From Candidatus Thorarchaeota archaeon (GTDB lineage: Archaea > Asgardarchaeota > Thorarchaeia > Thorarchaeales > Thorarchaeaceae), in assembly GCA_048884785.1 (NCBI GenBank), contig JBHLQM010000039.1:1-30770 (forward strand): 30,770 bases of DNA. Direction: 5' to 3'. Positions within the stretch are counted from its first letter, which is position 1, and every line of letters begins with the position of its first letter. The notes under the pieces were generated by a model. That model was not told the DNA's origin. It did not search any database and saw nothing but the letters and a program-made list of their open reading frames with translations. Below are positions 7,105-30,435 of this stretch, piece by piece. A program made the position numbers and the translations under genes.

Positions 7105-8463
7105 TTGACTCGAGTATCTATATCTTGTAGGTCCTCTGGCAAGGTTAATTCCTATTCATTCAGCAGTTCATCATTCAGGCTATGGCTTAGAAATGAAGAG
7201 ATAGAGGAAATTGACCTGAAGCAAGCACTGGATTTCCCAAATCTGAAAGAGATCTATTTAGACAATAATATGCTTCGGGCAATCGATTTGACCCCATTAG
7301 CAAGTTGTCAGAAATTGGAAGTCCTCAGTTTTGCTAACAATATTCTCGAATCAATTAATCTATTTCCTCTTACTCGTTGTTCTAATCTGAGATGGCTATC
7401 ATTATCCAACAATCGACTTACTTCTCTGAACCTCACGCCACTATCGCGATGCTCTCGATTGGAAAATCTTTACCTCTCAGGTAATGAATATAATACATTA
7501 GATCTAAAACCTCTTAGAAGATGCACTGAACTGAGAGAAATTACAGTTTCTCAAGATGATGACGGCGGATTTTTGACACGTGATGCAGCGATTAATATTA
7601 GCCACTTGGCACTCCTAAAAAAATTGAGTAAACTCACAATTTCAAAAAGCCATCCAGTAACCATGTCACTTCTTTCTAATCGATTTCAAAGAATTCCAGA
7701 CACCGTAGCTCAATATCTCAATCAGGAAACATACATTTCAATTGAAGATATAGTGTCAAATCGAATTGAACGCTCAGGTAGAAAGAATGCTATTGCATCA
7801 TTGGAAGAAGAGATTGAGAATCTTGATCCTCAGTATTGGTTGCCGTTGAGAAAGGATTTCCTAAAGCCACTTGGACTTGAGGTGCTAGCAGGACATGATG
7901 GAGATCTCTCACTTCTTTTTGATGACTCTTCGCATCCTAAGAATTGGAGAGATGAAGTGATCCATAGGGCAGCAAATGCAATTGAGAATGGCTCGCTTTC
8001 CACTCTTTATAATTTGGACGAGTTTGATGATGCTAATGCAAACCTAGTGAAACTGAAAGCAGCCATTCTTGAAAGCAGGAGCAATGAAATCAAGTATCCT
8101 AAAGTCTATGTCTGTGAGCGCTGTGCCGACTTGCGGGAGATTTGGTATACTGCGTGGGGCCTAAAAATCCTGACAGAGCTGCGACACTGGATCTTTGCCA
8201 CCTCTGGACCTGATCTTATAGAATTGCGAGATATGCTTAGGCAAATTGGATTCGATTTAAGATTCACACCTGTTAAGCTTCGAGAGCCTTGGCCAAAGGC
8301 CGCAAATGAACCATCTCACCTGGTGAAACGTGCCATCTTGGGCTCTGCTGAAAGAACAACGAGCAATGAGATGAAGACTAAAGCCACAAAGTGCATATTG
8401 AGCTCTGAAATACATCCTCTGAGAGGGGAGCTTGAGAATATTATTCTAGACATCTATGGGTGA
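7105..8463 (+). CDS. Leucine-rich repeat protein with helical C-terminal domain
   Basis: TTG start. About five 24-aa LRRs (e.g. AIDLTPLASCQKLEVLSFANNILE) of the same class as the gene at 1-537. The C-terminal region contains CERC-ADLREIWYTAWG. Confidence 0.88.
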   Translation: MTRVSISCRSSGKVNSYSFSSSSFRLWLRNEEIEEIDLKQALDFPNLKEIYLDNNMLRAIDLTPLASCQKLEVLSFANNILESINLFPLTRCSNLRWLSLSNNRLTSLNLTPLSRCSRLENLYLSGNEYNTLDLKPLRRCTELREITVSQDDDGGFLTRDAAINISHLALLKKLSKLTISKSHPVTMSLLSNRFQRIPDTVAQYLNQETYISIEDIVSNRIERSGRKNAIASLEEEIENLDPQYWLPLRKDFLKPLGLEVLAGHDGDLSLLFDDSSHPKNWRDEVIHRAANAIENGSLSTLYNLDEFDDANANLVKLKAAILESRSNEIKYPKVYVCERCADLREIWYTAWGLKILTELRHWIFATSGPDLIELRDMLRQIGFDLRFTPVKLREPWPKAANEPSHLVKRAILGSAERTTSNEMKTKATKCILSSEIHPLRGELENIILDIYG

Positions 8464-9776
8464 AATATATGACTGAAAGAGGTCTTGCTGATAAAATTGC
8501 AGGTGCACAATCACCCGAAGACCTAGGATTATATCTCCAGAAGATTTCAGTCGCAGATATTGTGGCTGATGAGGCAATTAGAACCTCTCTAAGACATCAG
8601 TCTAATCTCATAGCTTGTCTCATTCACAGGAATTACATTGAAGGCAGAACCTTGCCCTTATTGCATTGGATATCGGCATATCCGGAATTCCTACTCGAAA
8701 ACAGGATTCAGGAGAATCTGCGGAGACTTGGCATTGGAAATAGTATTCTTGACTGCTTCATAGATATTCTGAATTCAAGAGATAGAACAGTTCTAGAGCA
8801 CAAAGAGGCAATAAGGGCAATTGGTAGCATTCACGGGATATCTGACTTGGCCTGGCATTCACTCTATCGGAGCCCTCTTATGGGTCTAATTTCGTCCTTG
8901 GAATTAACAGATAGTTTTGCACGCCTTCTTGCCCTGATTATGAAGATTAGTTCTGTCATTAAGAATCGAGAAATTTTGGATATTGTGAACAAAAGGTCAC
9001 CGGAAATTGTTGAATCATTGGAAGGTAAGAAGAATCCTGATCTCGCAAGAGGGCTCCTTTGTGGATACACATTTTTGTGCGAAAACCCCTGGAAAATCGA
9101 TAAGATATCTGAATCCAAGGTCGACTCACTGGCACCTGAAATCGTCGATGCTCTTCTGTTGAAAATGATCCAGATGATTCCAGAACCCGCCACATTGAAT
9201 CTTTCAGAAAATGAGGGGAATCAACCGAAATTGCTGAGAATTATTGAGAGATCAATCGATAGACTTGGGTGGCCATTTGTTCAACACTACCTGAGGTTCA
9301 TCACACAGGAGAATCCAACAGCTACTGACTGGTTTGAGTTCATATGCAAGGCAATGGGGCCTATGGGACAGATTGACCATTCAGCATTTTTTCTGTTAAT
9401 CAAGGAACAGCAGCCCATTCCGAGACAGATAATGCAGACAGCTCTAGGAACGCCTGAGGAATATGTGATCTCTTTCGAGCTACTCGAAGAGGATGGCCTG
9501 ATTGATAAGTTTGAGACAGACTGCATCCAACTTGAAGACTCCATTCCAACGAGTAGGATGCAGATACAGCATTTTGAGAATGCAAGAACCGGCATAGGTT
9601 TAGAAGAAGCACTTGCCGGTGATCAATGCCTGGTTCGTTTATTATTGCAGCATGAAAATGAAACTGGCAGTGCTACTGCGGTGGATTTCCTAAAAGGAGT
9701 ACTTGTTTCAAACACTCTGCCAATAAAAGTTAAGAAAAGCGCAACACATTGGCTCAAGCAGATGAAGGAAATCTAG
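8460..9776 (+). CDS. Hypothetical, probably all-alpha-helical protein (438 aa)
   Basis: Long Leu/Ile-rich ORF with amphipathic patterning. GTGA overlap with the upstream LRR gene; alternative ATG at 8469. Confidence 0.78.
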   Translation: MKYMTERGLADKIAGAQSPEDLGLYLQKISVADIVADEAIRTSLRHQSNLIACLIHRNYIEGRTLPLLHWISAYPEFLLENRIQENLRRLGIGNSILDCFIDILNSRDRTVLEHKEAIRAIGSIHGISDLAWHSLYRSPLMGLISSLELTDSFARLLALIMKISSVIKNREILDIVNKRSPEIVESLEGKKNPDLARGLLCGYTFLCENPWKIDKISESKVDSLAPEIVDALLLKMIQMIPEPATLNLSENEGNQPKLLRIIERSIDRLGWPFVQHYLRFITQENPTATDWFEFICKAMGPMGQIDHSAFFLLIKEQQPIPRQIMQTALGTPEEYVISFELLEEDGLIDKFETDCIQLEDSIPTSRMQIQHFENARTGIGLEEALAGDQCLVRLLLQHENETGSATAVDFLKGVLVSNTLPIKVKKSATHWLKQMKEI

Positions 9777-15296: not shown

Positions 15297-17195
15297 ATGA
15301 CTGTAGATGATGTAAAAAGAACAGACGGTGGACGGGCATTAATGCTCTCAAACGAGGCTATTGTTCGTGGAGCCCTAGAAGCCAATGTGAAAGTTGTTGC
15401 ATTCTATCCGGGCTCACCTGTTTCAGAGATTATGGATACGTTTGGAGAGGTTTTGGAGCATTTTGATGACTTCAAAATGGAAATCTCGTCAAATGAGAAG
15501 GTAGCCCTGGAAACGGTTGCAGGTGCATCAATGGCTGGAGTAAGGTCATTCACGTCAATGAAGTCTGTAGGAATGAATGTGGCAAGTGATGCGATGTTTA
15601 GTCTTGCATATACGGGGATAAATGCGGGCTGTGTAGTTGTCATGGCAGATGATCCCTTTGCACACTCTTCTCAATCAGAGCAAGATGCACGATACTTTGG
15701 CGAAGCCGCCTATGTTCCAATGATAGAACCGGCAAACGCTCAGGAAGCCTATGAAATGGTAAAATGGGCATTTGACGTGTCTGAAAAATACAAGACACTA
15801 GTTCTCATGAGAACGACTACTCGTGTTAACCATGCTAGGGGCATGGTTCAACTTGGAGAACTTGATCGGACCCCCTTTAGGAAAAACAAATGGGCCGATG
15901 TTAGGGGTCAGTATTTTACCGTGGGTGCGATAGCACGCGCACTTAAAGCTGGTCTCCTAGAAAAATCAAGAGCTATGAAAAAGGATTTTGAAAAGTCACC
16001 CTTCAACAAAATTGAGAAAGGTAAAGGGAATGTTGGAGTAATCACTTCTGGTGTATGCTACCTGCATACGAAGGAAGCAATGCAGAACCTTGGCGTAAAG
16101 ATACCTGTCCTAAAGATAGGAACACTTTATCCTTTGCCAGAAAAGAAGATCGTTCAGTTCCTAGAATCATTGGAAACAGTCATCATTGTTGAGGAACTCT
16201 CGCCATATCTAGAAATGAGGATTACAGCACTGGCCAAGGATTCCAATCCATCTCTCAGAATCATAGGTAAGCGCAGCGGTGATTTCTCAGAAATGCTGGA
16301 ATATAATGTTCCAATAGTTGAGAAGGTTCTCGCCAGCACATTGGGTATGGAGTTGTCGCTTGACTATGATAGTTACCTGAAGAGAGCTGAGGAATTGAAG
16401 AAATCCCTTCCAGATCGTGTTCCAATCTTCTGTCCTGGATGTCCTCATAGAGGGACACTTTGGGCATTTAGGCAAGCCCTTGATCGGCTTCGAATACGAA
16501 ACAAGATTGTGTTCAATAATGACATTGGCTGTTACTCAATGGCGTTCTTACCACCGAATGAATTCAGTGATTCAATGCTGGCAATGGGTGCAAGTTTGGG
16601 AGTTTCAGCAGGAATGAGTCTTGTACTAGAAGACAAGATTATCGCTATGGTGGGTGATTCAACACTTTATCATGCAGCATTACCAGGTATCATCAATCTT
16701 ATCCATCACGGCTCCAATGTTACACTGTTTGTACTCGACAACTCAGTGACAGCAATGACAGGTCAGCAGTTTAATCCAAATACACCCTTCGATGCAGGTG
16801 GAAGGTCTGCAACTAAAATTAGTATGGACAAAATGTTTGAGGCTCTTGGAGCTGAAAGCATAACTGTCATTGACCCGTATCAGACACGAGATTGCATAGA
16901 CCCCATTAAGAAGGCAATCGAGGCTGATGGATTCAATGTCATCATCTCGAGAAGAGAATGCGCTCTCTATGGAGACCGAGAAAAGAAGAAACGCGGTGAG
17001 CAAATCCATCAAAGCGAGAATGTCAAAGAAACCTGTAGAAGTATCTATTCTTGTGTGAAGGAATTCCACTGCCCTGCCATAGTAATAGATCAATCTGACC
17101 ACAAGATGATGATTCTAGAGAGTCTCTGTGATGGATGTCTTGAATGTAGACAGGTCTGTCCAGTAGATGCGCCGCGTCACATAGAGGGGAGGTGA
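15297..17195 (+). CDS. iorA: Indolepyruvate:ferredoxin oxidoreductase alpha subunit
   Basis: NEAIVRGA, YPGSP, NEKVALE, MKSVGMNVASD, CPGCPHR, DIGCY, TPP motif GDST...LDNSVTAMTGQQ, and a C-terminal ferredoxin-like domain. Confidence 0.95.
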   Translation: MTVDDVKRTDGGRALMLSNEAIVRGALEANVKVVAFYPGSPVSEIMDTFGEVLEHFDDFKMEISSNEKVALETVAGASMAGVRSFTSMKSVGMNVASDAMFSLAYTGINAGCVVVMADDPFAHSSQSEQDARYFGEAAYVPMIEPANAQEAYEMVKWAFDVSEKYKTLVLMRTTTRVNHARGMVQLGELDRTPFRKNKWADVRGQYFTVGAIARALKAGLLEKSRAMKKDFEKSPFNKIEKGKGNVGVITSGVCYLHTKEAMQNLGVKIPVLKIGTLYPLPEKKIVQFLESLETVIIVEELSPYLEMRITALAKDSNPSLRIIGKRSGDFSEMLEYNVPIVEKVLASTLGMELSLDYDSYLKRAEELKKSLPDRVPIFCPGCPHRGTLWAFRQALDRLRIRNKIVFNNDIGCYSMAFLPPNEFSDSMLAMGASLGVSAGMSLVLEDKIIAMVGDSTLYHAALPGIINLIHHGSNVTLFVLDNSVTAMTGQQFNPNTPFDAGGRSATKISMDKMFEALGAESITVIDPYQTRDCIDPIKKAIEADGFNVIISRRECALYGDREKKKRGEQIHQSENVKETCRSIYSCVKEFHCPAIVIDQSDHKMMILESLCDGCLECRQVCPVDAPRHIEGR

Positions 17196-17200
17196 AAAGT

Positions 17201-17824
17201 ATGGAAAGAACATACAACATCCTATTTGCAGGAGTTGGGGGTCAAGGACTCATGCTTCTCTCAGCAGTGTTGGGAAAGGCTGCAGTTGATGCCGGACTTG
17301 ATGTGATGACTGGAGAAACTCATGGTCTTGCTCAAAGGAGTGGTTCAATCTATGTCCATTTCAAAATTGGCAAACCTATCTCCCCACTGATTCCCTATGG
17401 AAAGGCGGATATGCTCATCGCTATGGAGGCAACAGAGGCACTCAGGTACATTGAGTATCTGAAAGATGACGGAGTTATCATAATGAGCAAAAACACAATG
17501 CCTCCTGTTGCTGAAACAAAGGCTGTTGCTCTGGATAAAGAGAAGATAGCAAAATACTACGCGCTGGAGATGGTGGAGGAGAGATTGAGAAAAGTGACAA
17601 CTAAACTCATCTCGTTGGACTCTTTAGGTCTAGCATTGGAAGCCGGTAATGCTAGGACAGAAAACTCTGTTCTAATAGGCTCAGCAGCTTCTTGCCCTGA
17701 TTTCCCCATTTCAGCAGAAGATCTTCGAAAGGCAGTACTCTCACTAGTGCCCCCGAAGACTATCGAAGCAAACTCCAAAGCTTTTGATTTGGGAAGAGAA
17801 GCCGGAACAATCTGCCTTGGCTAG
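17201..17824 (+). CDS. iorB: Indolepyruvate:ferredoxin oxidoreductase beta subunit
   Basis: GVGGQG, ETHGLAQRSGS, EATEALR. ATG 17201 follows a GGAGGTGA SD (the track's GTG 17192 is an alternative start). Directly downstream of iorA. Confidence 0.93.
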   Translation: MERTYNILFAGVGGQGLMLLSAVLGKAAVDAGLDVMTGETHGLAQRSGSIYVHFKIGKPISPLIPYGKADMLIAMEATEALRYIEYLKDDGVIIMSKNTMPPVAETKAVALDKEKIAKYYALEMVEERLRKVTTKLISLDSLGLALEAGNARTENSVLIGSAASCPDFPISAEDLRKAVLSLVPPKTIEANSKAFDLGREAGTICLG

Positions 17825-17844
17825 TACCTGGGGACGAAGGAGGT

Positions 17845-18099
17845 TTATTCCTCCTCATCGTCTCCAGAACTCTCTTCCCATAGTCTTCCGAGCTGAAGCA
17901 ATGCAATGACAATTTCCGAGCCTTTGAGTCGCTTTGCGAGGTATTCCACTGATTCAGAAATAGTGTCTTCATGCTCCCAGGCGTCGTATGCGACCTCAAT
18001 GACAGAATCCATCCGCGATGCGGCGATACCGAAAGCTTCAGCTAGAAGATCTGCATTATGAGAGGTGATTGTTAATGTTCCAAGATTGTAGTCGGTCAT
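17845..18099 (-). CDS. Small acidic hypothetical protein (84 aa)
   Basis: Non-overlapping ORF with a GTGATG SD-like element and a TTATATA box about 32 nt upstream. No family recognised. Confidence 0.7.
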   Translation of the reverse strand: MTDYNLGTLTITSHNADLLAEAFGIAASRMDSVIEVAYDAWEHEDTISESVEYLAKRLKGSEIVIALLQLGRLWEESSGDDEEE

Positions 18100-18247
18100 T
18101 TACATCACATAGACTAGCATGGATGCCTGCTATATAATTTAGACTACTGGCCGGCTATAGAGCTAGAAAGACAATCCACCAAATAAACTATGGTTATGTC
18201 CATAGAATTATTAGTTAAAACATGCTGACCAACTCAGGGTGGAACCA

Positions 18248-19273
18248 ATGGCGCATGACAAGGTGTACGATACAATCATCATTGGAGGTGGTCCTGCAGG
18301 CTGTTCGGCTGCACAACATCTCGCATATCACAAACGATCCGTCCTCGTGCTCGATCGTGGGACGAGTCCGATGCACTTCCACACAAATTCGATAATGAAC
18401 CTTGCAGGAGAAACCTATTCCGAAGGGAGATCCCTTTTAAGAAAATTGCAGGGTGTAGCCAAATCGGCCGGAGCCAAGTTCATTGAAGCTGATGTAGTCG
18501 ATGTTTGCGGTGAGTATCCAAGTTTCAAAATCAAAACTGCACCAAGTTACAGGACAAAGGATGAATCCACCTATTATTGTCGTACGCTAATCTTCGCAAC
18601 CGGAACATCACGAAAACATCCAAAGGTTAACGGACAGTGGCGAAAATGGCTTCCTGTGGCGAACGTCGGCAACGGTGCCTATTATTGCCCTGATTGTGAG
18701 GCTCCTCTCTGCAAGGACAAAGAGGTCCTTGTTGTAAACGTTGGCACAGTTGGCAGTGCTCTTCATGTTGCAAACTCGCTTTCACGTTTCACCAAGAAGA
18801 TCAAAATCCTGATGACAGAAGATGCCTACATATCATTAGAAAAACAGGACTTAACAAAGCTTGATGCATCGCCTTTTCAATGGACATCAGGAAAGATTAA
18901 GCAGATAGACTTTCCAGTTCCGGGCAGACTTCAGAGCGTTACACTTCAGTCTGGAGAGGCAATCCGTTCAGATGTGTTCTTTGTTGCATTCGTTGCAGAA
19001 CCACGGACGCAACTCGCAAAATCAATTGGCGTTGAACTGGATGCCAGAGGGAATATACTTACAGACCACCGAGGCAAGACAAATGTTGAAGGAGTATGGG
19101 CCGCTGGGGATTGTAGGCCGATTACTCAACAAGTTGCCACAGCAATAGGAACTGGCAACTATGCAGCGCTCATGGCAAACCAATTCCTAGGAAATGAACA
19201 CGAGAGAGAAGAGATTTTCGATCATCCTGAGTGCAGAACTGCACTTCACATTGATGACATCCCACCAGGATGA
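18248..19273 (+). CDS. Thioredoxin-reductase-like FAD-dependent oxidoreductase
   Basis: IIGGGPAG, IFATG, YYCPDCE, TNVEGVWAAGD, QVATAIGTG. ATG 18248 follows GGGTGG (the track uses GTG 18239). Confidence 0.88.
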   Translation: MAHDKVYDTIIIGGGPAGCSAAQHLAYHKRSVLVLDRGTSPMHFHTNSIMNLAGETYSEGRSLLRKLQGVAKSAGAKFIEADVVDVCGEYPSFKIKTAPSYRTKDESTYYCRTLIFATGTSRKHPKVNGQWRKWLPVANVGNGAYYCPDCEAPLCKDKEVLVVNVGTVGSALHVANSLSRFTKKIKILMTEDAYISLEKQDLTKLDASPFQWTSGKIKQIDFPVPGRLQSVTLQSGEAIRSDVFFVAFVAEPRTQLAKSIGVELDARGNILTDHRGKTNVEGVWAAGDCRPITQQVATAIGTGNYAALMANQFLGNEHEREEIFDHPECRTALHIDDIPPG

Positions 19274-19283
19274 AACTCGATTT

Positions 19284-22211
19284 CTAATATCTGATCCTTG
19301 AAGCTACATGACCTGGCAATTTTGATTCGGTGAGAACCTGATTGCGTTCCTCCTCAGTGAACCTTGCCGCATCACACAATCTCTTGAAGGTTTCTTTGAG
19401 GTTAAGCTTCTCCATAATCTCAGGAGCATAGTTCACTCGATTGATATATGCGCCAGCAAGCAGTATCTTCTGACGCCGAGGCGCATCATCCCTGGTCATG
19501 GTTTCAAAGACAACAGTATCAAGTGCACCAAATAGGCCGGCAACCCACACATTATGAATTCGCTCTGTCCATACTGCGACAGCAAGCTCCCTCGTAATCC
19601 TGTTAATACGGGCTGAGTCAATGGTGATTCTGTATCCTCCATATACTCTTTCATAGCGTTGAGAAGCCAGAAGCAGTTTGGCACGCAACTCAGGGTTCGC
19701 TAAGACTTTCAATGCAAACCGCATGAAGTTTTCATTATTTAACGCCTTGTCAATGATTGCCTTTAGCTGTGGAAACATGGGTATCTTTGTGAGTTCATAG
19801 AGAGATTGTGCCAATACCGTCGGATTATGATGTGGTATGTCTTCTAATATTCTCCGCGTAAGGAAGTTTGATGAAGTGACTAGCTTCATATCTTCCTCTG
19901 GTTCAATTGGTAAATCTGAAACCATGTTTTTGATAGCTGATTGAATCCTTGGCCGGTAAGTATCTTCAAGCGGTTTTAGTGTAGTCTTCAAAAGCTCCGA
20001 AACTTCCTTGGTAGATCCATATGTTGAGGCTCTGAGCAGCTGAGAATACTCAGCAAGTTCCTCCATACTAAGCTCACCAACCTTCTTTTCACCCATAAAG
20101 AAAGCATGAACTTTTTCAAGCATTTTCTTCGCAATATCTACATTCTTGATTTTCTCAGCACTTCTTAGAAGGGCTTCAACATAGGGTCTGGACATGTCCA
20201 TTTCGATGGTACCGCCAAAACCTGACAGAATGTCTGCTGCGTCAAGGATATCCATGATGAATGTCTTGGTTTCAGGTTGAGACTTCTTTGCTGCATCCTG
20301 CAGGAATTTTTTGAGATTCATATTTGTCGGATCGCTAAGAAGTTCCTCAGCAATTGGAGTGATTATCATAGATTGGTCTTCATCTGACAACTTCAGAGCA
20401 TCAACATATGCATTCAGTCTTTTGAAAAGACCTTGTGCAGCCAGTTTTGCGACAACGAGCTGAATCAATTCATTTCGATGCGAGATGTCTAAGAGATTAG
20501 TTAATTCAGTTATTTTCTTCAGCGTTTTGGCATTTGAAACAAAAACAGCAGCAGCGTCTTTAGCTCCAATATCCCAAAGGGTGTTAATCTTTAGTTTCTC
20601 ATCATCAAATGCTTCTATCAGATATGCAAAGACTTTGATGGCATGGGCATCTTCTCTGATGGATTTGGTCAGAGCACGTATACCATCCCTTAACTGAAGA
20701 CATAGTGTAAGGGCTTCATCAGCAAGATCCTGATCATTTAGATTAACAATTAGCTTCACTGCTGCCTGGGAATATCCTGATTCCTTTAACTTAACAAATT
20801 GAGCCGCAGCAGACTCTAAATTGCCCTTTTGAATTTCAGAGAGAATTGAAGTTCTGCGATAGTCAACCTCCATATTCAGATGCCTATATACACGCGAAGC
20901 AGATTCAAAATCACCAACACTGTCATACTTATTCGCTACTTTGGTTAGACTCTCAGTTACACGTGGCCCTAGGTTCATGATTTGCTGAATCATAGGTTCT
21001 GGGAGTCCCAATTGAATAGCCATTCTAATAGCTGAGTTGTGCATCCTTCTATTGCAAAATATCTCAAACGCTAATTTCTTATCTTCTTCATCTCCAGCTT
21101 CTAGCTTTTTGGCACTCAAGATGTCTTTCGAACCTTTGACTCTTGACCTTCGCATATAATCGGTGACCGGAATTGCCACAACGAGTGCTGGTAGGAATAT
21201 AAGCAAAACAGGCAATTGCCATCCAGCTGACGCAACTATTGCACCATTATATAATGTGCGAGGCGACAATTCATTAGATAGGTGAAGAATCACGTGAAGA
21301 TAAATCGTCCTGCTTACAAGTGATAAATCGGACATTTCGTAGTAGTATGTATATTGGTTTTCCCCAGGTTCAATCTCTATCTCTTCTTGCAGAACTATAG
21401 TATCATCAAGTTCAATGGAGAGCAAAGCCGATAATTGCGATGCCTCCCTGTTGAATACACCAATATTCAATTGCCAAAGCCCAACTTGAGGGGTTGCAGG
21501 AACATAGACTGAAACAATTGGTGCCAAAAGCGCTCGTGTTGATAAAATCGCCATTGCAGGGGAATATTCTGCACCAACTGGTCTGTAGTCTAATCTGTAA
21601 TTGCCAACCGAAGCATTGCTGGGCAGGAGAAGGTTGATTGTGGCAATTTGCCCATCCAGCGATATAGCAATCCCTGACTGCACTATTTGTCCTGTCGGAT
21701 TTCTCAACCAGAACTCGACCAGATCAATGTCAACAGGGTTGCTTTCTATGTCTATGAATCCGAATTGAACTTCATATGGAATTCCAAAAACCAAGTTTCC
21801 CAATGTTTCAATAAATCCATCAGGGGGCATTACTTCAATGTCAAGGGTGAATTCCTCCAGAGTTTCAACCACCCAATATGTAACTGTATAGGTTCCTTCA
21901 GGGGAATCATGTGGAAATGAGAAGGTCTTATCTGCGAAACCCGAACCATCTCTAGCGCAGTAACCAGTTTCGATTAATGCGTCTGAAGGATCTGTAAAAT
22001 TATAGCCATAGAGAGACCCTGAGAGGGAACCTCCGCTCAGTGTGACATCAACAGATGAGCCAATCGAAGCCTGAATAGGTGGCAACTGAGAAACAGTGTT
22101 TTGACAAAAGGTTGCATCTGAGGCTTGAGCTGAGTGTCCAGTTTCAGTGAATAACGCTCCTGCAAAAAAGAGTGTGATTAAGATAAGAGAAATGAATGTG
22201 CGCCGATTCAT
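19284..22211 (-). CDS. Type I membrane protein: signal peptide, beta-rich (Ig-like) ectodomain, one TM helix, ~620-aa helical cytoplasmic region
   Basis: N-terminal MNRRTFISLILITLFFAG; beta-strand motifs GTYTVTY and GNYRLDY; TM WQLPVLLIFLPALVVAIPV (from aa 331) followed by MRRSRVK; TPR/solenoid-like helical repeats after that. Confidence 0.82.
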   Translation of the reverse strand: MNRRTFISLILITLFFAGALFTETGHSAQASDATFCQNTVSQLPPIQASIGSSVDVTLSGGSLSGSLYGYNFTDPSDALIETGYCARDGSGFADKTFSFPHDSPEGTYTVTYWVVETLEEFTLDIEVMPPDGFIETLGNLVFGIPYEVQFGFIDIESNPVDIDLVEFWLRNPTGQIVQSGIAISLDGQIATINLLLPSNASVGNYRLDYRPVGAEYSPAMAILSTRALLAPIVSVYVPATPQVGLWQLNIGVFNREASQLSALLSIELDDTIVLQEEIEIEPGENQYTYYYEMSDLSLVSRTIYLHVILHLSNELSPRTLYNGAIVASAGWQLPVLLIFLPALVVAIPVTDYMRRSRVKGSKDILSAKKLEAGDEEDKKLAFEIFCNRRMHNSAIRMAIQLGLPEPMIQQIMNLGPRVTESLTKVANKYDSVGDFESASRVYRHLNMEVDYRRTSILSEIQKGNLESAAAQFVKLKESGYSQAAVKLIVNLNDQDLADEALTLCLQLRDGIRALTKSIREDAHAIKVFAYLIEAFDDEKLKINTLWDIGAKDAAAVFVSNAKTLKKITELTNLLDISHRNELIQLVVAKLAAQGLFKRLNAYVDALKLSDEDQSMIITPIAEELLSDPTNMNLKKFLQDAAKKSQPETKTFIMDILDAADILSGFGGTIEMDMSRPYVEALLRSAEKIKNVDIAKKMLEKVHAFFMGEKKVGELSMEELAEYSQLLRASTYGSTKEVSELLKTTLKPLEDTYRPRIQSAIKNMVSDLPIEPEEDMKLVTSSNFLTRRILEDIPHHNPTVLAQSLYELTKIPMFPQLKAIIDKALNNENFMRFALKVLANPELRAKLLLASQRYERVYGGYRITIDSARINRITRELAVAVWTERIHNVWVAGLFGALDTVVFETMTRDDAPRRQKILLAGAYINRVNYAPEIMEKLNLKETFKRLCDAARFTEEERNQVLTESKLPGHVASRIRY

Positions 22212-22714
22212 TTAGTTTCCTCCTCTTCCTCTTCACTCTTCAAGTCAAACGAACCATCCTTTTTTACAACCAATTCGAAGTCAGCGAACTCATCATCCGG
22301 AACTTCAACATCTCCAAAAATGAGCGGCTCTTTAACCGAAGTCGGAGGTGCTTCATCTGACACTTTGGGTTTGGGTGTCTCAGGTTCATCAGGGAATACC
22401 AGTTCAATGGGAACATCATCAATCTCGACTGGTTCTTCAAACAGTTGGTCCTTCTCCTCACTAGGCTTGATTCTTTCTGTCTTCTTCTTTTTACGCGTAC
22501 TCCGTTTTGAGTCGGCTGGAGCAGCTGATGATTCTGTTACAGTGGACGCCAGTACACTATCTAATGATTCAGAAGACTCCATACTTCTAATCAGAATATT
22601 CAATCTTTGTGATATTCGCGCAATTCCAAGGAACTCAAGTACAACAATAGCAGTAAGAATCGCAGGTAGCGCCGTTGCCAATACTGTGAGTACTAGCTCA
22701 AGGGCTTGCAGCAT
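22208..22714 (-). CDS. Membrane-anchored protein with acidic, Pro-rich, probably disordered tail
   Basis: N-terminal hydrophobic segment followed by S/E/D/P/K-rich low-complexity sequence. ATG 22714 follows a GAGGGGTG SD. ATGA overlap with the downstream gene. Confidence 0.75.
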   Translation of the reverse strand: MLQALELVLTVLATALPAILTAIVVLEFLGIARISQRLNILIRSMESSESLDSVLASTVTESSAAPADSKRSTRKKKKTERIKPSEEKDQLFEEPVEIDDVPIELVFPDEPETPKPKVSDEAPPTSVKEPLIFGDVEVPDDEFADFELVVKKDGSFDLKSEEEEEETK

Positions 22715-23013
22715 CGACCACACCCCTCTGAAAATACACAGTGATGAAACTGATTATGTTTGACTTAGAACGGTTTGATATTATGCCAATATCCCTCAAT
22801 TCAGTGCAGGCTCCCATAACTCATATCTAGCCTAACATCCTGCCTATTTACTTTTACTCATCATATTCTGAAGGCACAAATTATTTAGCATTGTGTCTCT
22901 AATTGTAGCTAAGCTGTGGCATAGCCACTTGTGGCATCCATAGTGATGAAAATGGGCATGGTTGCAGAAAAGGCCGCTGAGTGACATTGAATAATGCCAC
23001 GAGGGATGTTGGA

Positions 23014-26000
23014 GTGACAAGAAAAATACTGATTCTCGCTTTATTTGCCATGGCTATGATTGTTCCATCCATATTGATTACACCTGAAGTATTCATGTCC
23101 CCAGCTTCAGAAGCAGGCGATGATTCAATTCCAATCGAGTATGAATCACATTTCACTTCTGCATGGTTGCTTGGATGGCAGTATAGAAAGGCACACATAA
23201 TTAGAGGAGAATCTGGAGTGGGATCTGGATATCAGGTTCGGATTTCCGTACGTTATGGCTCTGGAATAGATAGCTCTGATAATGTATACCTAGATTCCAA
23301 ATGTCAGACTGATTTTGATGATATTCGGTTTACTAACGACGACCAGACAACACTCCTGCCTTACTGGAGGGAATCCTATTCCTCTTCCAACTACGCAAAT
23401 TTCTGGGTCAAAATCGAGGATAGTCTTGATTCGGATGTCACAATTTTCCTATATTATGGAAATTCAACAGCCACAAGTCTAAGTGATGCAGACTTGGTTT
23501 TTGATATGTACGATGGCTTCGATAGAGCAGATTCAGCCTCAGTTGGAAATGGTTGGATGGAAGATGAAGGGCCAAGTCCGGGTGCAACATCTATCAGCTC
23601 AAATCAACTTAGAATATACCAGTATCAGGACTACTACTGTCATATAGAAAAGCCTGCCCCATCTTTATCGAATTTGGTTTTCCAAGGAAAATTGTACCAT
23701 GGCTCTTATTCTGGTGCCAGCTGGATGCCATCAATTCATGTCTATTGGGATACATACGATTGGATTAGAATTGGATCTGGTTCATCCCACCAAGCAGTGT
23801 ATAATGACGGAGGAAATCCAGCAGGATATTCATCCGGATCTGCGTCAACAAATACTTGGTACTATTATCGGATAAGATTGACTGATGATTATGCATATGC
23901 AGACTATTCAACTGATGGGATAACTTGGGTTAATGTATTAACGCATGCCAGGGCGGTTTCTTGGGAAGGACCTCCAGCATTGGTTCTTATCGGGAAGGGA
24001 TACAGTGGTAGTCCCAATTATCCGAATGTGGACCTTGACAACAATTATGCAACTACAGCCTCTATTGGCACTCACTATGGTGACGATGTTTTTGTAAGAA
24101 AATATGTAAGTTCAGCTGAACCAAATCAGGGTGAATGGGGAGGTGAAGTGACTGAGGATTCAGAGAACTGGCTATCTGGTTGGCAATATAGAAAATCTCA
24201 TACTATTCAGGGCAGCCTCGGGGCTGGACAAGGGTATCAGGTAAGGGTTGTTGTTCACTACGGGTTTGGTACAGATGAGAGTGAACATGTATATCTGGGC
24301 GGTAAGTGCAACTCAGATTTCTCTGATATCCGGTTTATAGACACGACCAATCTTTTGCAGCTTGGATATTGGCTTCAGGAGAAAGCGGATAGTAATTATG
24401 CAGTGTTTTGGGTAAGAATTTCTAAGGACTTGGGTTCAGAACAATCATTCTATTTGTATTACGGTAACATCTTCTCAGAGTCTGAGAGCAATGGGGATGC
24501 AACCTTCATGTTTTTCGATGACTTCAATGACGGAGTGTTTGATAGTACCACTTGGATGGAATGGAGCACTCTCACCGCCGGGACACCATCCGAGGCAAAT
24601 GGTCTGATGACCTATACGAACCCAAGTGGGTGGGGAAGTCTTGGAACTGTGAACAAGCTATTTCCCATCAACACCGCATTTGGGGGCTATGGCAAAACCT
24701 CCGCAGACAGCAACTACTGGTGGTTCAATCGTCATGGATGTGGAAATCCGGTAACGGGCCAAATTGCAATCGGTTATGATGGAGCCTATGGCGGAGCCCA
24801 ATATGAGGCCCGTGATGTCGATACTACCTATACTGCAAGGTCAACTGTATATACGAGCTTTGTGTCGTTTGAGGTCCAGTGGATGCCTGGCAAGGCCAGG
24901 TTCTATGAGGAGGGTTCACTCAAGGCGACCCTGACATCCAATGTCCCGAACAATGGAGACCTGGGGATTGGTATGATCGTGAGCGGGACCCACACACTCT
25001 CATGGGACTGGGTTTATATCAGGAAGTGCATTGATGCCGAACCAAACCATGGGGAATGGGGTTCCGAGGAATATACGGCCCAAGCCAATCAACCCTCCGG
25101 GTGGCTGTCAGGATGGGAGTTCAGAAAGATACTGCAAATTGATGCAGGTTTAGGAGCAGGTACGAATTATCAGCTTCGTTTCAATGTATATTATGGGCAA
25201 GGGGTCGATATCGGAAGTACAGTATATTGCAACTTTAAATGCAAAGCTGATTTCAGTGATATCAGATTCACAAGCTCCAATGGAACAACGGTATTAGATC
25301 ATTGGGTTGAGCGATACACAGAGTCAAGCCTAGCAGTTATCTGGGTGGAAGTACGAGAGGATCTGGATTATAATCAGATCATTTGCTTCTATTACGGGAA
25401 TCCTGCGGCGAGGAGTGTTTCGAATGGAGCAAACACGTTCCTTATTTTCGATGATTTCGATGACGGGGTAATAACGGATTGGATTCTGGACACACCTGTA
25501 GGTTCAATCACTGAATCTAGCGGCACGCTGATATTGGAGATACCAAGTGGTGTAAATGGTAATTGGTGGTCAACTACCACCGAATTTGCGCCAATTGCCT
25601 ATCAGGCCGCACCCACAGGCAGGTGGATTGCGGAAACAAAACTGAACTCGTATTCTGTAAGCACCTATACGCATGCCGGCATCATGTTATATCAGAACAG
25701 GGATAATGTAATCAAGAGTGGAAGATACAGATCTACATCATATAATCGTCATCAGGTTGAACGAATATACCAAGATTCAGGATTGGGCACTCTGGGATAC
25801 TACTCAAGCACATCTCTTCCATCTCAGCTTCGAATACGAAATACCGGCACAACGAAATATTATGATGCTAGTGTTAATTCAGGTTCGTCCTGGTCTCAAA
25901 TGTACTCTAGCTCCTATGTGACTCCTGATTATGTGGGTCTTTTTGTCAAGAATTGGGGTACATACCCACTAGTTTCAGCTCCCTTTGATTGGTTCCATGT

Positions 26001-29000
26001 AAGAAAATTCGCCGCAACAGAACCCAGTTTTGGGTCTTGGACACCTGAACAGCAAAAGGGGTTGGATGATTGGGGATATTATAAATCGCACATTATCTCA
26101 GCAACTACTGGAGTTAACTCAGGTTATCAAATGAAAATATCTGTTAATTTTGGTATTGGAGTAGATTCTGGAGAGAATGTATACTGCAATTTCAAGTGTA
26201 AGCCGGATTTTGATGATATTAGGTTTGCAGACTCAACTAGATTAAACATGCTTGATTATTGGAGGGAATCATACACCCTCGGCACTAAAGCAACCTTTTG
26301 GGTTGAGTTGAATGAACCATTGGATGAAGATAGGACAATCTACATGTACTATGGAAATGCAGATGCCAACACTACCAGTGATGGCTTTGAAACAATGTCA
26401 CGATGGGCAAGCTACAATGCTGATGACACGGAATCACCCCAATCCACGTATACATATCTGGGAGGTTCAACAATCGTAGACCAAGAGAAGCTATTCATAT
26501 CCACTAGCGGAACCTCTTATTCACAATATAGGATATTCAATCAAATTCTATCCAACGATGATCGGTTTCTGCGTGTGCGATTCCAGCCTGTTAGTTTGGG
26601 GAACAATATGTATAGATTTCAGCCGGGTATGTTCGTCTATCAAACTACGTCCCTTCAGGGAACAGCGTATTGGGCGGAGAGCCTTTTATGGGATGATGCA
26701 GGTCTCTGGCTATTCTATACAATGAGTAGCGGCTCAAGTATTCAATTCACTCCACTATCATCAACTCATATCAACCTCAATCATTGGTATGATGTCAGTT
26801 TATCAGTTTCAGGAACTTCGTGTCATGTTATGGTTTATGATGAAAACACATCATCGACAATTGTAGATACGATAACTTCTGTATACAACCATGATTCGAC
26901 AAGCTTGTATGCATCGTTTGGGCAATACTCAGGTCCCAACCCAGGTACCGTGGAAGCTTGGTATGATGATATCTATATGAGAAAATACGTTTCAACCGGA
27001 CCAGCACATGGCGATTGGGGAGACGAAACTATAAACGAAGCAGGAGTAACAGACTCACCCATTTTAATAACAAATAACCAGATGTTTCTATACTATGCCA
27101 CTCAGGGCGATGGAACGCCACAAAATCCATACGTCATGGATGGATATAACATACGCACAAGATTCACGTGTGTTGAAATCATCAACACAACAGCATATTT
27201 CATCTTGGCGAATTCAACGCTGTCATCGGGTCTTTCAATTGCTAGAGGCTGGGGATTATCATTAGCAAATGTCACAAATGGAAGAATTGTCAATACACTG
27301 ATACGATTAAAGGAAATCGGAGTACTGGTCAGTAATTGTACTGACATAAGTATCGATGGCAATTCATTGGAAAAGAATGACATCGGGATTTCTATATGTA
27401 ATGGCTCCTTCAATACCACTGTTTCGACGAATACAATTGATGATTGCACAGTAAGCTCTGTACTCTTGTCAGATGCATTGCTTTCGAATATTACGCAAAA
27501 TGAGTTTTCGAATATGGGGCTTATGATTAGTGGGAGCTTCCTCCAGAATTGGAATCATAACATCACACTCAACACCATGAATGGCAAGCCTATCCTGTAT
27601 CTCTGGAATCAAAGAGATTCCATATATGATGGAGGCACCTATTCACAGGTTATTCTTGCATTCTGTTATAATGTAACCATAACTAGCGGTCAATTTCAGA
27701 ACGTGGCTACAGGGATAATGCTCGGTTTTACAAATGACAGTCTTATCTATGATAACATCATTCGAGGCAGCGAAATCTATGGGATTTTCATATATGAAGG
27801 CCAAGACAACATTCTTGCAAATAACACAGTGTCCAATGGGAAGGGAACAGGATTATGGCTTAATGGAGCGCCAGGCTCTCAAATCACAAATAACTCAGTC
27901 TATGGTCTAGATCTATATGGGATTCTTGTCGAGAATTCATCGAGCACAGTGTCTACTGGACTCAAGGTGTGGCAAAATAGAATCGGATACAATATACTGG
28001 GGAATGCATATGACAATGGAAGCAGCAACCTCTGGGATGATGATATTTCCATTGGAAATACTTGGAATGATTACGGAGGTGCTGGTGTCTATAACATACC
28101 CGGGAATGCAAATAGTGTTGACAGGTATCCAAACCAGCTTCTGTATCCTTCACCCACAATCTCCGGTCCGAGTGACTTTCCAATTGAATTTGCTACATCA
28201 GGCAATTCTATAGAATGGACTACAGAGTCTTCATTTCCGCATAGATATGTTGCATATCAGAATGACACCCAAGTTGAAAGCAGCGATTGGTTTGGTGGCA
28301 CGCTGCTTCTTTTTGTTGATGGCTTAGCTGTGAATACCTACAACTATACAGTCATAGTATTTGACCATGCAGGATTCAACTCTAGTGATTCGGTGATCCT
28401 TACAGTGAGGGACACTCTAGCCCCTTCAATCAGCTCACCCTTGCCACTAACCTACGATTTTGGCTCTACAGGTCATACATTGTCCTGGAACATGTCTGAT
28501 CCGAGCTTCTCGTTCTATGAAATTCAAAGAAATGGCACTCATGTGGTAACAGGATATACTGCTGCTGCATTCATCAGTATTGATGGATTGGACCTTGGAA
28601 AACATAATTACTCCATAACTGCGTGTGACCTATACGGGAATAATGCATCGGATTCTATCTGGGTTACTGTAATAGATGGCACGTTTCCTCTAATAGATTC
28701 ACCTTCAGACTTCATATACGAATTTGGAATGACAGGAATTAATGTCACATGGAATCCATCAGATTTATTCCCAATCAACTATGATGTTTTGCAAAATGGT
28801 AGTTCTATTCAATCAGGGCCTTGGGACGGAGGACAAGTATCTGCAATAGCATCCCCGCTGATTATGGGGTTACACAATTTCACAGTCATCGTCACTGATG
28901 TCGGGGGCAATAATGTTTCAGACACAATCCTTGTAACTGTGGAATCTGAGGCGCCTCCTGCAATGAGCTCTCCAGATGATTTCTGGTATCAAGTTGACAC

Positions 29001-30435
29001 TGTTGGCAATCAGATCAATTGGACATGCTGGGATCGTCATCCTGGAGTCTATCAGGTCTACAGAAATGGTACAAGTCTTGATAGTGACAGCTGGTCGAAT
29101 GGTTTATGGATTCTTAATATTGATGGATTAGAACCTGGAAGTATCTATAATTTCACACTGGTACTAGGCGATCAACTTCAGAATAATTCAACAGATACAG
29201 TATTTGTTCGCGTACGGGACTTGACTCCACCAACCATCAATTCGCCCTCTGACATCTTCTATGAGTATGGCAGAATGGATGTAAACCCAATTCAGTGGAT
29301 TCCGTCTGACCTATATCTCAGTCATTATACTTTGTATCTGGATGATATCTTTATTGATACCGTACCTTGGATAGGAGGCAACATCGTTTGGGGTATAGAT
29401 GTCCTTTTGGCACCGGGTACTCACAATTTCACAGTCATAATATTCGACGTTGATTATAACAATGCATCAGATACAGTTATGGTTGAGGTGTATCCTTCAT
29501 TCCCACCAACAATAGATCATCCGATTGATGCAACCATTGAGTTGGGGACTACTAGAGTCATTACATGGAATCCATCTGATGTGTCGATAGGCAGCTATAC
29601 AATCTATGTCGATGGTATTTCCAACGATACTGGACCATGGTATGGAGAATCTATCTCTTTCAGCTTTACCAAGACTACATCAGGAACATACAATATCACA
29701 GTGAAGGTCGAAGACGCTGCAGGTAATTGGTCAAGTGATACAGTGATTATCACAATAGAGGATACCACAAATCCAGTCATCGCAGACACTGAAAACTGGA
29801 TTTGGATTCAAGGTGAACAGATACCTGCTCAAACTCTGTATTGGTATGCGTATGATTTGCAGCCTGGTACATTTTTTGTGTATCTTGATGGTAGTGAAGA
29901 TGCTAATGGTCAATGGTCCAATGGAGAAGCAATAAGCTATACATTCTCAACAATCCCAACTTGGGGGGATCATGTCGTTTTCATCTCCATTATTGATGCA
30001 GATGGTAATCTTGCAAACAGCACCGTCTTGTTCATACCGCATAGCCTGTTGGACTTTGAAGAGCCAAATGACATCACAATTGAATTTGAAGATGATGAGG
30101 CTATACAATGGACTCTGTTGGCTGGCAGTCCCAGTCAATACTGGCTTACCATCGACTACGTTTCGGTAGAGTCTGGAAATTGGACTGGTTCCGAAAAGAC
30201 TGTGAATCTTGATCAACTGCCAATTGGAATCCACCACATCTCGATTGCTGTTGTTGATACGCTCGGACTCTGGTATTCAGATGAAGTGGTGGTCAATGTC
30301 GAAGGTTCTATGCTGACAGGCACAACCCCTCATGGAGAGCCGCAAGACTATACGTGGGCTTTGATTGCGATTCCGGTCACGTTAGTTGGAGTAGTAGTAA
30401 TTATCTGTCTTATTCAGAAAAGGAAATCCAGCTAG
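23014..30435 (+). CDS. Giant cell-surface protein: 4x DUF2341-like modules, parallel beta-helix (NosD/pectin-lyase-like), ~8 Ig-like repeats, C-terminal TM anchor
   Basis: Signal peptide MTRKILILALFAMAM from GTG 23014 (the track starts at 22981); four W.YRK...DF.DIRF...WV...YYGN units; GDGTPQNPY plus Asn-ladder repeats; ~90-aa P.I..P.D...G.(Y/H)N(Y/F)T repeats; TM WALIAIPVTLVGVVVIICLI followed by QKRKSS. Confidence 0.9.
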   Translation: MTRKILILALFAMAMIVPSILITPEVFMSPASEAGDDSIPIEYESHFTSAWLLGWQYRKAHIIRGESGVGSGYQVRISVRYGSGIDSSDNVYLDSKCQTDFDDIRFTNDDQTTLLPYWRESYSSSNYANFWVKIEDSLDSDVTIFLYYGNSTATSLSDADLVFDMYDGFDRADSASVGNGWMEDEGPSPGATSISSNQLRIYQYQDYYCHIEKPAPSLSNLVFQGKLYHGSYSGASWMPSIHVYWDTYDWIRIGSGSSHQAVYNDGGNPAGYSSGSASTNTWYYYRIRLTDDYAYADYSTDGITWVNVLTHARAVSWEGPPALVLIGKGYSGSPNYPNVDLDNNYATTASIGTHYGDDVFVRKYVSSAEPNQGEWGGEVTEDSENWLSGWQYRKSHTIQGSLGAGQGYQVRVVVHYGFGTDESEHVYLGGKCNSDFSDIRFIDTTNLLQLGYWLQEKADSNYAVFWVRISKDLGSEQSFYLYYGNIFSESESNGDATFMFFDDFNDGVFDSTTWMEWSTLTAGTPSEANGLMTYTNPSGWGSLGTVNKLFPINTAFGGYGKTSADSNYWWFNRHGCGNPVTGQIAIGYDGAYGGAQYEARDVDTTYTARSTVYTSFVSFEVQWMPGKARFYEEGSLKATLTSNVPNNGDLGIGMIVSGTHTLSWDWVYIRKCIDAEPNHGEWGSEEYTAQANQPSGWLSGWEFRKILQIDAGLGAGTNYQLRFNVYYGQGVDIGSTVYCNFKCKADFSDIRFTSSNGTTVLDHWVERYTESSLAVIWVEVREDLDYNQIICFYYGNPAARSVSNGANTFLIFDDFDDGVITDWILDTPVGSITESSGTLILEIPSGVNGNWWSTTTEFAPIAYQAAPTGRWIAETKLNSYSVSTYTHAGIMLYQNRDNVIKSGRYRSTSYNRHQVERIYQDSGLGTLGYYSSTSLPSQLRIRNTGTTKYYDASVNSGSSWSQMYSSSYVTPDYVGLFVKNWGTYPLVSAPFDWFHVRKFAATEPSFGSWTPEQQKGLDDWGYYKSHIISATTGVNSGYQMKISVNFGIGVDSGENVYCNFKCKPDFDDIRFADSTRLNMLDYWRESYTLGTKATFWVELNEPLDEDRTIYMYYGNADANTTSDGFETMSRWASYNADDTESPQSTYTYLGGSTIVDQEKLFISTSGTSYSQYRIFNQILSNDDRFLRVRFQPVSLGNNMYRFQPGMFVYQTTSLQGTAYWAESLLWDDAGLWLFYTMSSGSSIQFTPLSSTHINLNHWYDVSLSVSGTSCHVMVYDENTSSTIVDTITSVYNHDSTSLYASFGQYSGPNPGTVEAWYDDIYMRKYVSTGPAHGDWGDETINEAGVTDSPILITNNQMFLYYATQGDGTPQNPYVMDGYNIRTRFTCVEIINTTAYFILANSTLSSGLSIARGWGLSLANVTNGRIVNTLIRLKEIGVLVSNCTDISIDGNSLEKNDIGISICNGSFNTTVSTNTIDDCTVSSVLLSDALLSNITQNEFSNMGLMISGSFLQNWNHNITLNTMNGKPILYLWNQRDSIYDGGTYSQVILAFCYNVTITSGQFQNVATGIMLGFTNDSLIYDNIIRGSEIYGIFIYEGQDNILANNTVSNGKGTGLWLNGAPGSQITNNSVYGLDLYGILVENSSSTVSTGLKVWQNRIGYNILGNAYDNGSSNLWDDDISIGNTWNDYGGAGVYNIPGNANSVDRYPNQLLYPSPTISGPSDFPIEFATSGNSIEWTTESSFPHRYVAYQNDTQVESSDWFGGTLLLFVDGLAVNTYNYTVIVFDHAGFNSSDSVILTVRDTLAPSISSPLPLTYDFGSTGHTLSWNMSDPSFSFYEIQRNGTHVVTGYTAAAFISIDGLDLGKHNYSITACDLYGNNASDSIWVTVIDGTFPLIDSPSDFIYEFGMTGINVTWNPSDLFPINYDVLQNGSSIQSGPWDGGQVSAIASPLIMGLHNFTVIVTDVGGNNVSDTILVTVESEAPPAMSSPDDFWYQVDTVGNQINWTCWDRHPGVYQVYRNGTSLDSDSWSNGLWILNIDGLEPGSIYNFTLVLGDQLQNNSTDTVFVRVRDLTPPTINSPSDIFYEYGRMDVNPIQWIPSDLYLSHYTLYLDDIFIDTVPWIGGNIVWGIDVLLAPGTHNFTVIIFDVDYNNASDTVMVEVYPSFPPTIDHPIDATIELGTTRVITWNPSDVSIGSYTIYVDGISNDTGPWYGESISFSFTKTTSGTYNITVKVEDAAGNWSSDTVIITIEDTTNPVIADTENWIWIQGEQIPAQTLYWYAYDLQPGTFFVYLDGSEDANGQWSNGEAISYTFSTIPTWGDHVVFISIIDADGNLANSTVLFIPHSLLDFEEPNDITIEFEDDEAIQWTLLAGSPSQYWLTIDYVSVESGNWTGSEKTVNLDQLPIGIHHISIAVVDTLGLWYSDEVVVNVEGSMLTGTTPHGEPQDYTWALIAIPVTLVGVVVIICLIQKRKSS
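23164..27030 (+). repeat. Four tandem ~310-335-aa protein modules
   Basis: Units begin at about 23164 (WLLGWQYRK), 24169 (WLSGWQYRK), 25102 (WLSGWEFRK) and 26062 (LDDWGYYK). Each ends with D...RK...(E/G)P..G.W..E. Confidence 0.85.
28150..30310 (+). repeat. About eight tandem ~90-aa Ig-like stalk repeats
   Basis: Recurrent starts PTISGPSD, PSISSPLP, PLIDSPSD, PAMSSPDD, PTINSPSD, PTIDHPID, PVIADTEN and LDFEEPND, with recurrent N-x-S/T sequons. Confidence 0.8.

Follow-up and report, generated by a model that had tools for sequence, protein, structure and literature searches.

Cysteine peptidases of family C25 (gingipain R, clan CD, PF01364), which include CWB2/C25 proteins of Thermoplasmatota, carry a His-Gly...Cys dyad after two strands, followed by immunoglobulin (Ig)-like domains (PMC4357240). 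Alpha-solenoids are found beside membranes in the protocoatomers (clathrin, COPI/II, IFT-A, HOPS/CORVET), which are defined by the combination of a beta-propeller and a solenoid (PMC6141808). In Pseudomonas, LapD, LapG and LapA unite a membrane protein with cytoplasmic input, a surface cysteine protease and a giant adhesin in one locus (PMC3032545). Here we describe a pair of overlapping genes that encode a 975-residue membrane protein and a 168-residue membrane partner in Candidatus Thorarchaeota archaeon (assembly GCA_048884785.1). They lie on the minus strand of contig JBHLQM010000039.1, within the 30,770-nucleotide stretch that was analysed as a whole (the window).

The locus compares differently with each of these systems. 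Long relatives of the large protein share the dyad and Ig-like domains of C25 peptidases and add a transmembrane helix, a 620-residue cytoplasmic solenoid and a coupled transmembrane microprotein, whereas the window's protein lacks the protease domain. Relative to these long forms it has the same stalk, transmembrane helix and solenoid but no head or protease, and its partner has grown from about 50 to 168 residues. The likeness to the Lap system is one of analogy only: no homology was found, cyclic di-GMP-binding domains are lacking, and the protease is fused in cis or lost. The pair is real, and neither it nor its solenoid family is described in the literature that we searched on Thorarchaeota gingipain-like proteins, solenoids or coats. 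We conclude that the pair is an accessory offshoot of an established protease family, confined to one lineage, and not a coat.

Long relatives and probable loss of the head

Among 400 Asgard genomes (86 in the window's family and 314 others), a profile of the solenoid finds members in 9 of the 86 and in none of the 314. An exhaustive profile search among 1.8 billion proteins returned about 16 family clusters, then generic TPR/PPR proteins only. Conservation across Asgard archaea, which an earlier model-based reading of the DNA (the original prediction) had proposed to look for, thus shrinks to one family (9 of 400 genomes).

Complete members outside the window's genus are 1719-2023 residues long and run from a signal peptide through a CWB2-like/PPC head, a gingipain-like C25 domain, one to four MG2-like repeats and an Ig domain to a transmembrane helix and the alpha-solenoid. 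Their extra 800-1000 residues comprise CWB2-like and PPC-like pieces (weak Pfam matches) and a domain with His-Gly and Cys invariant in 37 of 37 protease-domain rows. A profile of this domain finds a paralogue in 75 of 85 family genomes (E 1e-24 to 1e-37); 15 of 28 members match Pfam C25 (PF01364), and the core paralogues pass the curated cut-off. Searched alone against Pfam, the long forms give no PF01364 match, and the link runs via the paralogue profile. The top Atlas match of the domain is C25, a lead only; a PDB sequence search with it gave no match, and its structure model, built from a shallow alignment, reached a predicted local distance difference test (pLDDT) score of 33. The His and Cys are about 77 residues apart in the long relatives and about 33 apart in gingipain. 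Together these matches suggest that the long relatives carry a gingipain-like (C25) protease domain, for which proteolytic activity is predicted.

The core paralogue belongs to a cluster of small GTPase, TPR protein, C25 protease and Roadblock genes (L074:2590-8650, on G000 contig C3 outside the window; also L071 and L072). Its protease has 1287 residues, is anchored by a transmembrane helix and ends in a conserved KEFFGV-like motif. The cluster resembles the present family in its paralogous protease ectodomain and in a helical-repeat protein on the cytoplasmic side; it differs in that the TPR protein is a separate gene and in its spread: it occurs in 75 of 85 genomes, the solenoid family in 8 of 85. 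Homology between this TPR protein and the solenoid was rejected, none being detectable (hhalign probability 0.4%).

In the window's protein, the CWB2-like/PPC/C25 head that precedes the MG2-like repeats of long relatives is missing. The C25-like profile does not match it, the sole match in its genome being the core paralogue on contig C3, and the head is found nowhere else in that genome. An alignment of residues 43-359 with the stalk and transmembrane helix of two long forms runs from end to end free of large gaps (E 2e-30 and 2e-24). Five short forms make up one clade, which groups with the long forms P0008 and P0016 at 100/99 in a tree of the solenoid. These short forms and P0008/P0016 have a multi-repeat stalk in common, all other long forms having one repeat, and a protease tree with its root on the core paralogue places the P0008/P0016 subclade in a derived position (98/99). 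On these grounds we infer that head loss is derived, and the window's protein is best read as a long-form chain minus about 970 residues (head, protease and one repeat).

Outer domains vary further across the family. The number of MG2-like repeats ranges from 0 to 4, and in genome G016 both repeats are gone as well, leaving a single outer domain. The opposite deletion, protease forms without a cytoplasmic part, is also found: head-only relatives (L076:2155-6948, L068:2975-7803, L069/L070) consist of C25, three MG2-like repeats and a transmembrane helix, without solenoid or microprotein, one of them fused to DUF2341 and another split by a frameshift. At L026:9930-10000, a deletion spans the junction of the two genes and takes out the last motif of the partner together with the start of the large gene, marking a broken copy or an assembly error.

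The features of the pair are as follows, in order of transcription.

22721..22728, minus strand: Shine-Dalgarno-like GAGGGGTG before the partner gene (sequence)
22208..22714, minus strand: partner gene, 168 residues, with a single transmembrane helix (about residues 4-30, probably N-out/C-in), a juxtamembrane helix in which Glu46 is near-invariant, and an acidic tail peculiar to the lineage (open reading frame, alignment, hydropathy, microprotein profile)
22565..22714, minus strand: partner core (residues 1-50), family-wide, equivalent to the entire 50-56-residue microprotein of long forms
22238..22330, minus strand: end of the partner tail (residues 129-159), conserved Phe/acidic motifs and a likely beta-hairpin, in the head-less clade only (alignment; hairpin by eye)
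22208..22225, minus strand: GAGGAGG within poly-Glu codons of the partner, then the ATGA stop/start overlap (sequence), suggesting translational coupling
19284..22211, minus strand: large gene, 975 residues, type I membrane protein (open reading frame calling)
22131..22211, minus strand: Sec-type signal peptide, about residues 1-27 (hydropathy; RR unconserved; no TatC)
21540..22088, minus strand: two MG2-like Ig stalk repeats, residues 42-128 and 138-224 (domain profile matches)
21225..21530, minus strand: membrane-proximal Ig-like domain, residues 228-329, the least conserved folded part (sequence alignment)
21159..21221, minus strand: transmembrane helix, residues 331-351, with near-invariant Trp331, Pro341 and Leu343 (hydropathy, family alignment)
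20997..21113, minus strand: juxtamembrane helices, residues 367-405, with invariant polar Glu371 and Arg396, a candidate docking site for the partner (family alignment)
20217..21149, minus strand: TPR/PPR-like alpha-solenoid, residues 355-665 (structure model and profile matches)
19287..20189, minus strand: C-terminal helical domain, residues 675-975, long helices with one beta-hairpin (structure model)

Most of the architecture proposed in the original prediction is borne out. Both open reading frames of the two-gene operon are confirmed, joined by the ATGA overlap, with a Shine-Dalgarno-like run 6-7 nucleotides before the ATG of each; its position before the partner favours the ATG at 22714 over a GTG at 22723 as start. 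Hydropathy of the large protein gives two strong segments, the hydrophobic region of the signal from residue 6 and the transmembrane helix from 333, followed by RRSRVK; the beta-rich ectodomain has Ig domain matches, and the cytoplasmic part of roughly 620 residues is modelled as helical. The partner, likewise as predicted, is a transmembrane anchor (one strong segment, from residue 8) with an acidic tail (net charge -16 over residues 57-168). A proposed twin-arginine-like signal did not survive comparison. No close orthologue carries the motif, and none of the family's 86 genomes, including 23 with a completeness of at least 90%, yielded TatC, while a control was detected in 11 of 14. Tat export was rejected on these grounds, which instead point to Sec.

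A small membrane partner encoded with the large chain

Profile matches to the full 168-residue partner are confined to the same genus. In long forms, however, 8 of 8 loci with DNA show an open reading frame of 50-56 residues, with one transmembrane helix and a ribosome-binding site, that runs up to the large gene's start codon. With the five short-form loci, where overlap or abutment is likewise kept, the partner adjoins the large gene at all 13 solenoid-bearing loci, which agrees with the expectation that the two genes are conserved together; the count leaves out the long forms P0012 and P0017 (no DNA), both with 150-320 nucleotides free upstream. By comparison, 0 of 455 other large open reading frames of the window's genome have such a neighbour. 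When the whole genome was searched with a profile of nine microproteins from other genera, the window's partner came out first (E 6.3e-6, next 0.011, with composition correction off).

Three relatives that have no cytoplasmic part also lack the microprotein. G025 retains it although its solenoid is reduced to the first ~50 residues, and these include the helices that hold the invariant Glu371 and Arg396. This G025 form (L067:6045-10221) is a protease form in which the truncated solenoid is followed by an unrelated 150-residue tail and which retains a 56-residue microprotein. The sole near-invariant residue of the partner is Glu46.

When the transmembrane helix and solenoid were co-folded with partner residues 1-60, the score was 0.34 against 0.00 for the best control, runs agreed on at least 92% of contacts, and partner pLDDT was at least 77. 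In calibration, 58 of 80 solved pairs and 2 of 110 mismatched pairs attained the mark; counting those that did so at 0.60 or below, just 7 of the solved pairs remain, along with both mismatches. Co-folding of the pair, as the original prediction had suggested, thus scored above controls while falling in the range that both mismatched passers share, and lends weak support to direct contact. The solenoid carries a net charge of 0 to +20 wherever the partner has an acidic tail (five forms) and a negative one in 16 of the 17 other members. This shift of charge alongside the tail is suggestive and represents one evolutionary event.

The cytoplasmic solenoid and its constraint

An AlphaFold2 model of residues 355-975, from an 11-sequence alignment, has a mean pLDDT of 86.9 and a predicted template modelling score (pTM) of 0.61, and is all-helical except for one beta-hairpin. 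The cytoplasmic part is therefore modelled as a confidently folded alpha-solenoid, in support of the predicted large, non-enzymatic helical solenoid behind a single transmembrane helix in type I topology. Pfam and PDB searches gave no consistent match for an enzyme or winged-helix reading of the C-terminal domain, which was rejected. The segments quoted as repeats in the original prediction are successive helices without detectable sequence repetition: a sub-profile self-search gave two weak off-diagonal matches, neither among them. A canonical TPR protein with tandem 34-residue repeats was also rejected, since no such periodicity was found and no TPR family passes the Pfam cut-off for the window's protein; relatives reach just E 0.07-0.16.

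The fold comparison that had been proposed upheld a solenoid, of generic TPR/PPR/HEAT type, but not a relationship to clathrin, coatomer, IFT or Vps chains. Foldseek returned generic solenoids only (template modelling score at most 0.22), and Atlas structure searches reached at most 0.41 by query. The best VIA-align match is a mitoribosomal PPR chain (Z 9.8, root-mean-square deviation (rmsd) 11.3 Å, 300 residues aligned), below which HEAT, TPR, condensin and IFT-A chains are tied, all with Z at most 9.8 and rmsd above 10 Å; by the program's guidance, Z below about 13 is common among helical repeats. IFT-A (Z 8.6, rmsd 11.3 Å, 212 aligned) is just one of these tied generic matches, and clathrin, COPI, COPII and Vps chains are absent from the top rows of both the Foldseek and VIA-align searches. 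An IFT172 profile matches at E 0.007 over the first 100 positions, but designed PPR and ARM proteins give better sequence matches. Like protocoatomers, the protein places an alpha-solenoid beside a membrane; it differs from them in its integral transmembrane helix, in the lack of a specific fold match and in having no N-terminal cytoplasmic beta-propeller, helices beginning directly after the transmembrane segment in the model. SBBP propellers encoded nearby belong to secreted, C-terminally anchored proteins and not to the cytoplasmic side. Because the propeller is missing, we do not class the 975-residue protein as a protocoatomer.

Among close orthologues, silent sites are saturated (proportion of silent differences, pS, 0.6-0.9), while the corresponding proportion for replacement differences (pN) spans 0.13-0.27 for the solenoid and 0.14-0.23 for the transmembrane helix of the partner. 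Identity is 57-79% in the solenoid, 64-77% in the partner helix, 44-58% in the MG2-like repeats and 26-36% in the proximal Ig domain. Residues 811-975, which are basic (net +8), form the most conserved stretch at 75-79%, and the motifs at the end of the partner tail (residues 129-159) are 46-49% identical, against 19-29% in the linker. High protein identity beside saturated silent sites suggests that both chains are maintained, with constraint strongest inside the cell.

Possible roles of the pair and its genomic setting

The explanation that we favour, at roughly an even chance, is that the two chains form a membrane-anchored scaffold whose ancestor was a surface cysteine protease. It builds on the observed architecture, descent, gene coupling and pattern of constraint, and proposes a topology, a contact between chains, cytoplasmic binding and positioning of the protease. 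Coupled translation would give the chains at about 1:1, and the transmembrane segment and short helix of the partner may pack on the transmembrane helix and first cytoplasmic helices of the large protein. The solenoid would bind cytoplasmic proteins, holding the complex at a chosen membrane site. In long forms this anchoring would position, and may gate, a protease outside the cell; in the window's lineage only an anchoring or adaptor role would be left, and the complex would not be an enzyme. The acidic tail with its Phe motifs may bind the now-basic solenoid or a third protein. A scaffold is preferred to a ligand receptor because the outer part is the least conserved and is down to one domain in G016.

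Several observations weigh against this explanation. Searches failed to find the locus in two genomes of the same genus that are 92-95% complete. The MG2-like repeats could bind something, as their identity indicates that they are under selection. The correlations among loss of the head, gain of the tail and the shift in charge are not independent tests, each change being one evolutionary event; the three relatives without a solenoid probably form one clade and represent few independent events; and the solenoid tree is midpoint-rooted, with no outgroup.

Other explanations assign the outer part a more active role. An inside-out regulator in trans, whose stalk would grip the core C25 paralogue or the adjacent giant surface protein while the solenoid switches, would have a precedent for its logic in the Lap system (PMC3032545). 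Giant transmembrane-anchored surface proteins are encoded directly upstream on the same strand at five long-form loci, a giant surface gene is divergent at three of four short-form loci with flanks, one C25 paralogue is retained in the window's genome, and head-only relatives exist too. Yet we judge such a regulator unlikely, as the giant gene is missing at L023, L017 and L018, the single outer domain left in G016 is poorly conserved, the cytoplasmic part has no ligand-binding domain, and head-only and head-less forms were not seen together in one genome. The main idea of the original prediction was an outside-in receptor whose Ig domains bind a ligand, with the solenoid recruiting effectors and the small chain as signalling adaptor. 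Topology, an obligate small transmembrane partner and purifying selection on the MG2-like repeats would suit it, but the Ig domains are a protease spacer of varying repeat number and include the least conserved parts, no charged residue is conserved in the partner's transmembrane helix across the family, and there is no effector domain, which makes it rather unlikely. Of the proposed coupling between an external binding event and an internal lattice, the membrane-spanning layout stands, but the outer part proves the most dispensable in a protein that arose from a C25 surface protease by deletion. A design in which a single-pass protein bears a large cytoplasmic solenoid and has an obligate small transmembrane chain is characteristic of eukaryotic receptors and seldom seen in prokaryotes, which makes the pair a compact, expressible test case. 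A eukaryote-like two-chain receptor module that would signal to or from a caspase-fold surface protease, its head-less copy serving as decoy or adaptor to control the GTPase/Roadblock-linked C25 paralogue in trans, also strikes us as rather improbable.

The pair might instead be a decaying relic of a protease gene that itself serves no function. Outer domains lost step by step, a patchy occurrence (3 of 7 genomes of the genus) and the deletion in the L026 copy would accord with decay, which is nonetheless quite improbable given full open frames in four lineages, the excess of silent over replacement change and the conserved motifs gained by the partner. Least probable, and very much so, is a membrane-coat-like lattice former akin to clathrin, coatomer or IFT solenoids. 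An alpha-solenoid at the membrane of an Asgard archaeon would invite that comparison, as would the IFT172 and IFT-A matches, but these rank level with matches to PPR, HEAT, condensin and designed repeats; moreover, the propeller that is the defining companion of protocoatomer solenoids (PMC6141808) is lacking, the protein has an integral transmembrane anchor, and the family is confined to about a tenth of one archaeal family.

The pair is divergent, as predicted, from a giant adhesin-like gene (22981-30435, plus strand), which encodes a 2484-residue surface protein with four DUF2341 domains, a beta-helix, Ig repeats and a C-terminal transmembrane helix. A gene of this type is also divergent in L022 and L026, and absent in L023. 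At L019, L020, L038, L040 and L077, giant SBBP/DUF7948/TSP3 surface proteins (some with DUF2341) with C-terminal transmembrane helices are encoded directly upstream of the microprotein on the same strand; three giant SBBP-type genes abut it, a possible three-gene operon and possible substrate. On the other side of the pair lie iorA/iorB-like genes and a TrxR-like flavoprotein gene (15297-19273, plus strand). In most genomes iorA/iorB-like, TrxR-like, ferritin-like, Thioredoxin_9 and HxlR genes flank the family, marking a variable surface-protein slot.

Several family members have Roc/Arf-like genes for small GTPases, with 125-residue and multi-transmembrane neighbours, within a few kb (L018:11273-13925, L019:3063-5744, L022:17016-19667 and L040:11257-14111), and a peptidase C13 gene (legumain-like, also clan CD; L038:13943-15211) lies three genes downstream of a long form. 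Elsewhere on the plus strand of the window are genes for a 1224-residue FIST-PAS-GAF-PAS-GAF histidine kinase (2978-6652) and for a leucine-rich repeat protein that overlaps a 438-residue gene without Pfam match (7105-9776), a pair order shared with L023/L025. A sigma-70 promoter scan gave chance-level results, that consensus being uninformative for an archaeal host.

Because it is lineage-restricted, the pair says little about the origins of coats. What the favoured explanation would offer is a case, within one Asgard family, in which domain loss turns a surface enzyme into a non-catalytic membrane scaffold, while a tiny membrane partner, of a kind that usually goes unannotated, persists and is built upon.

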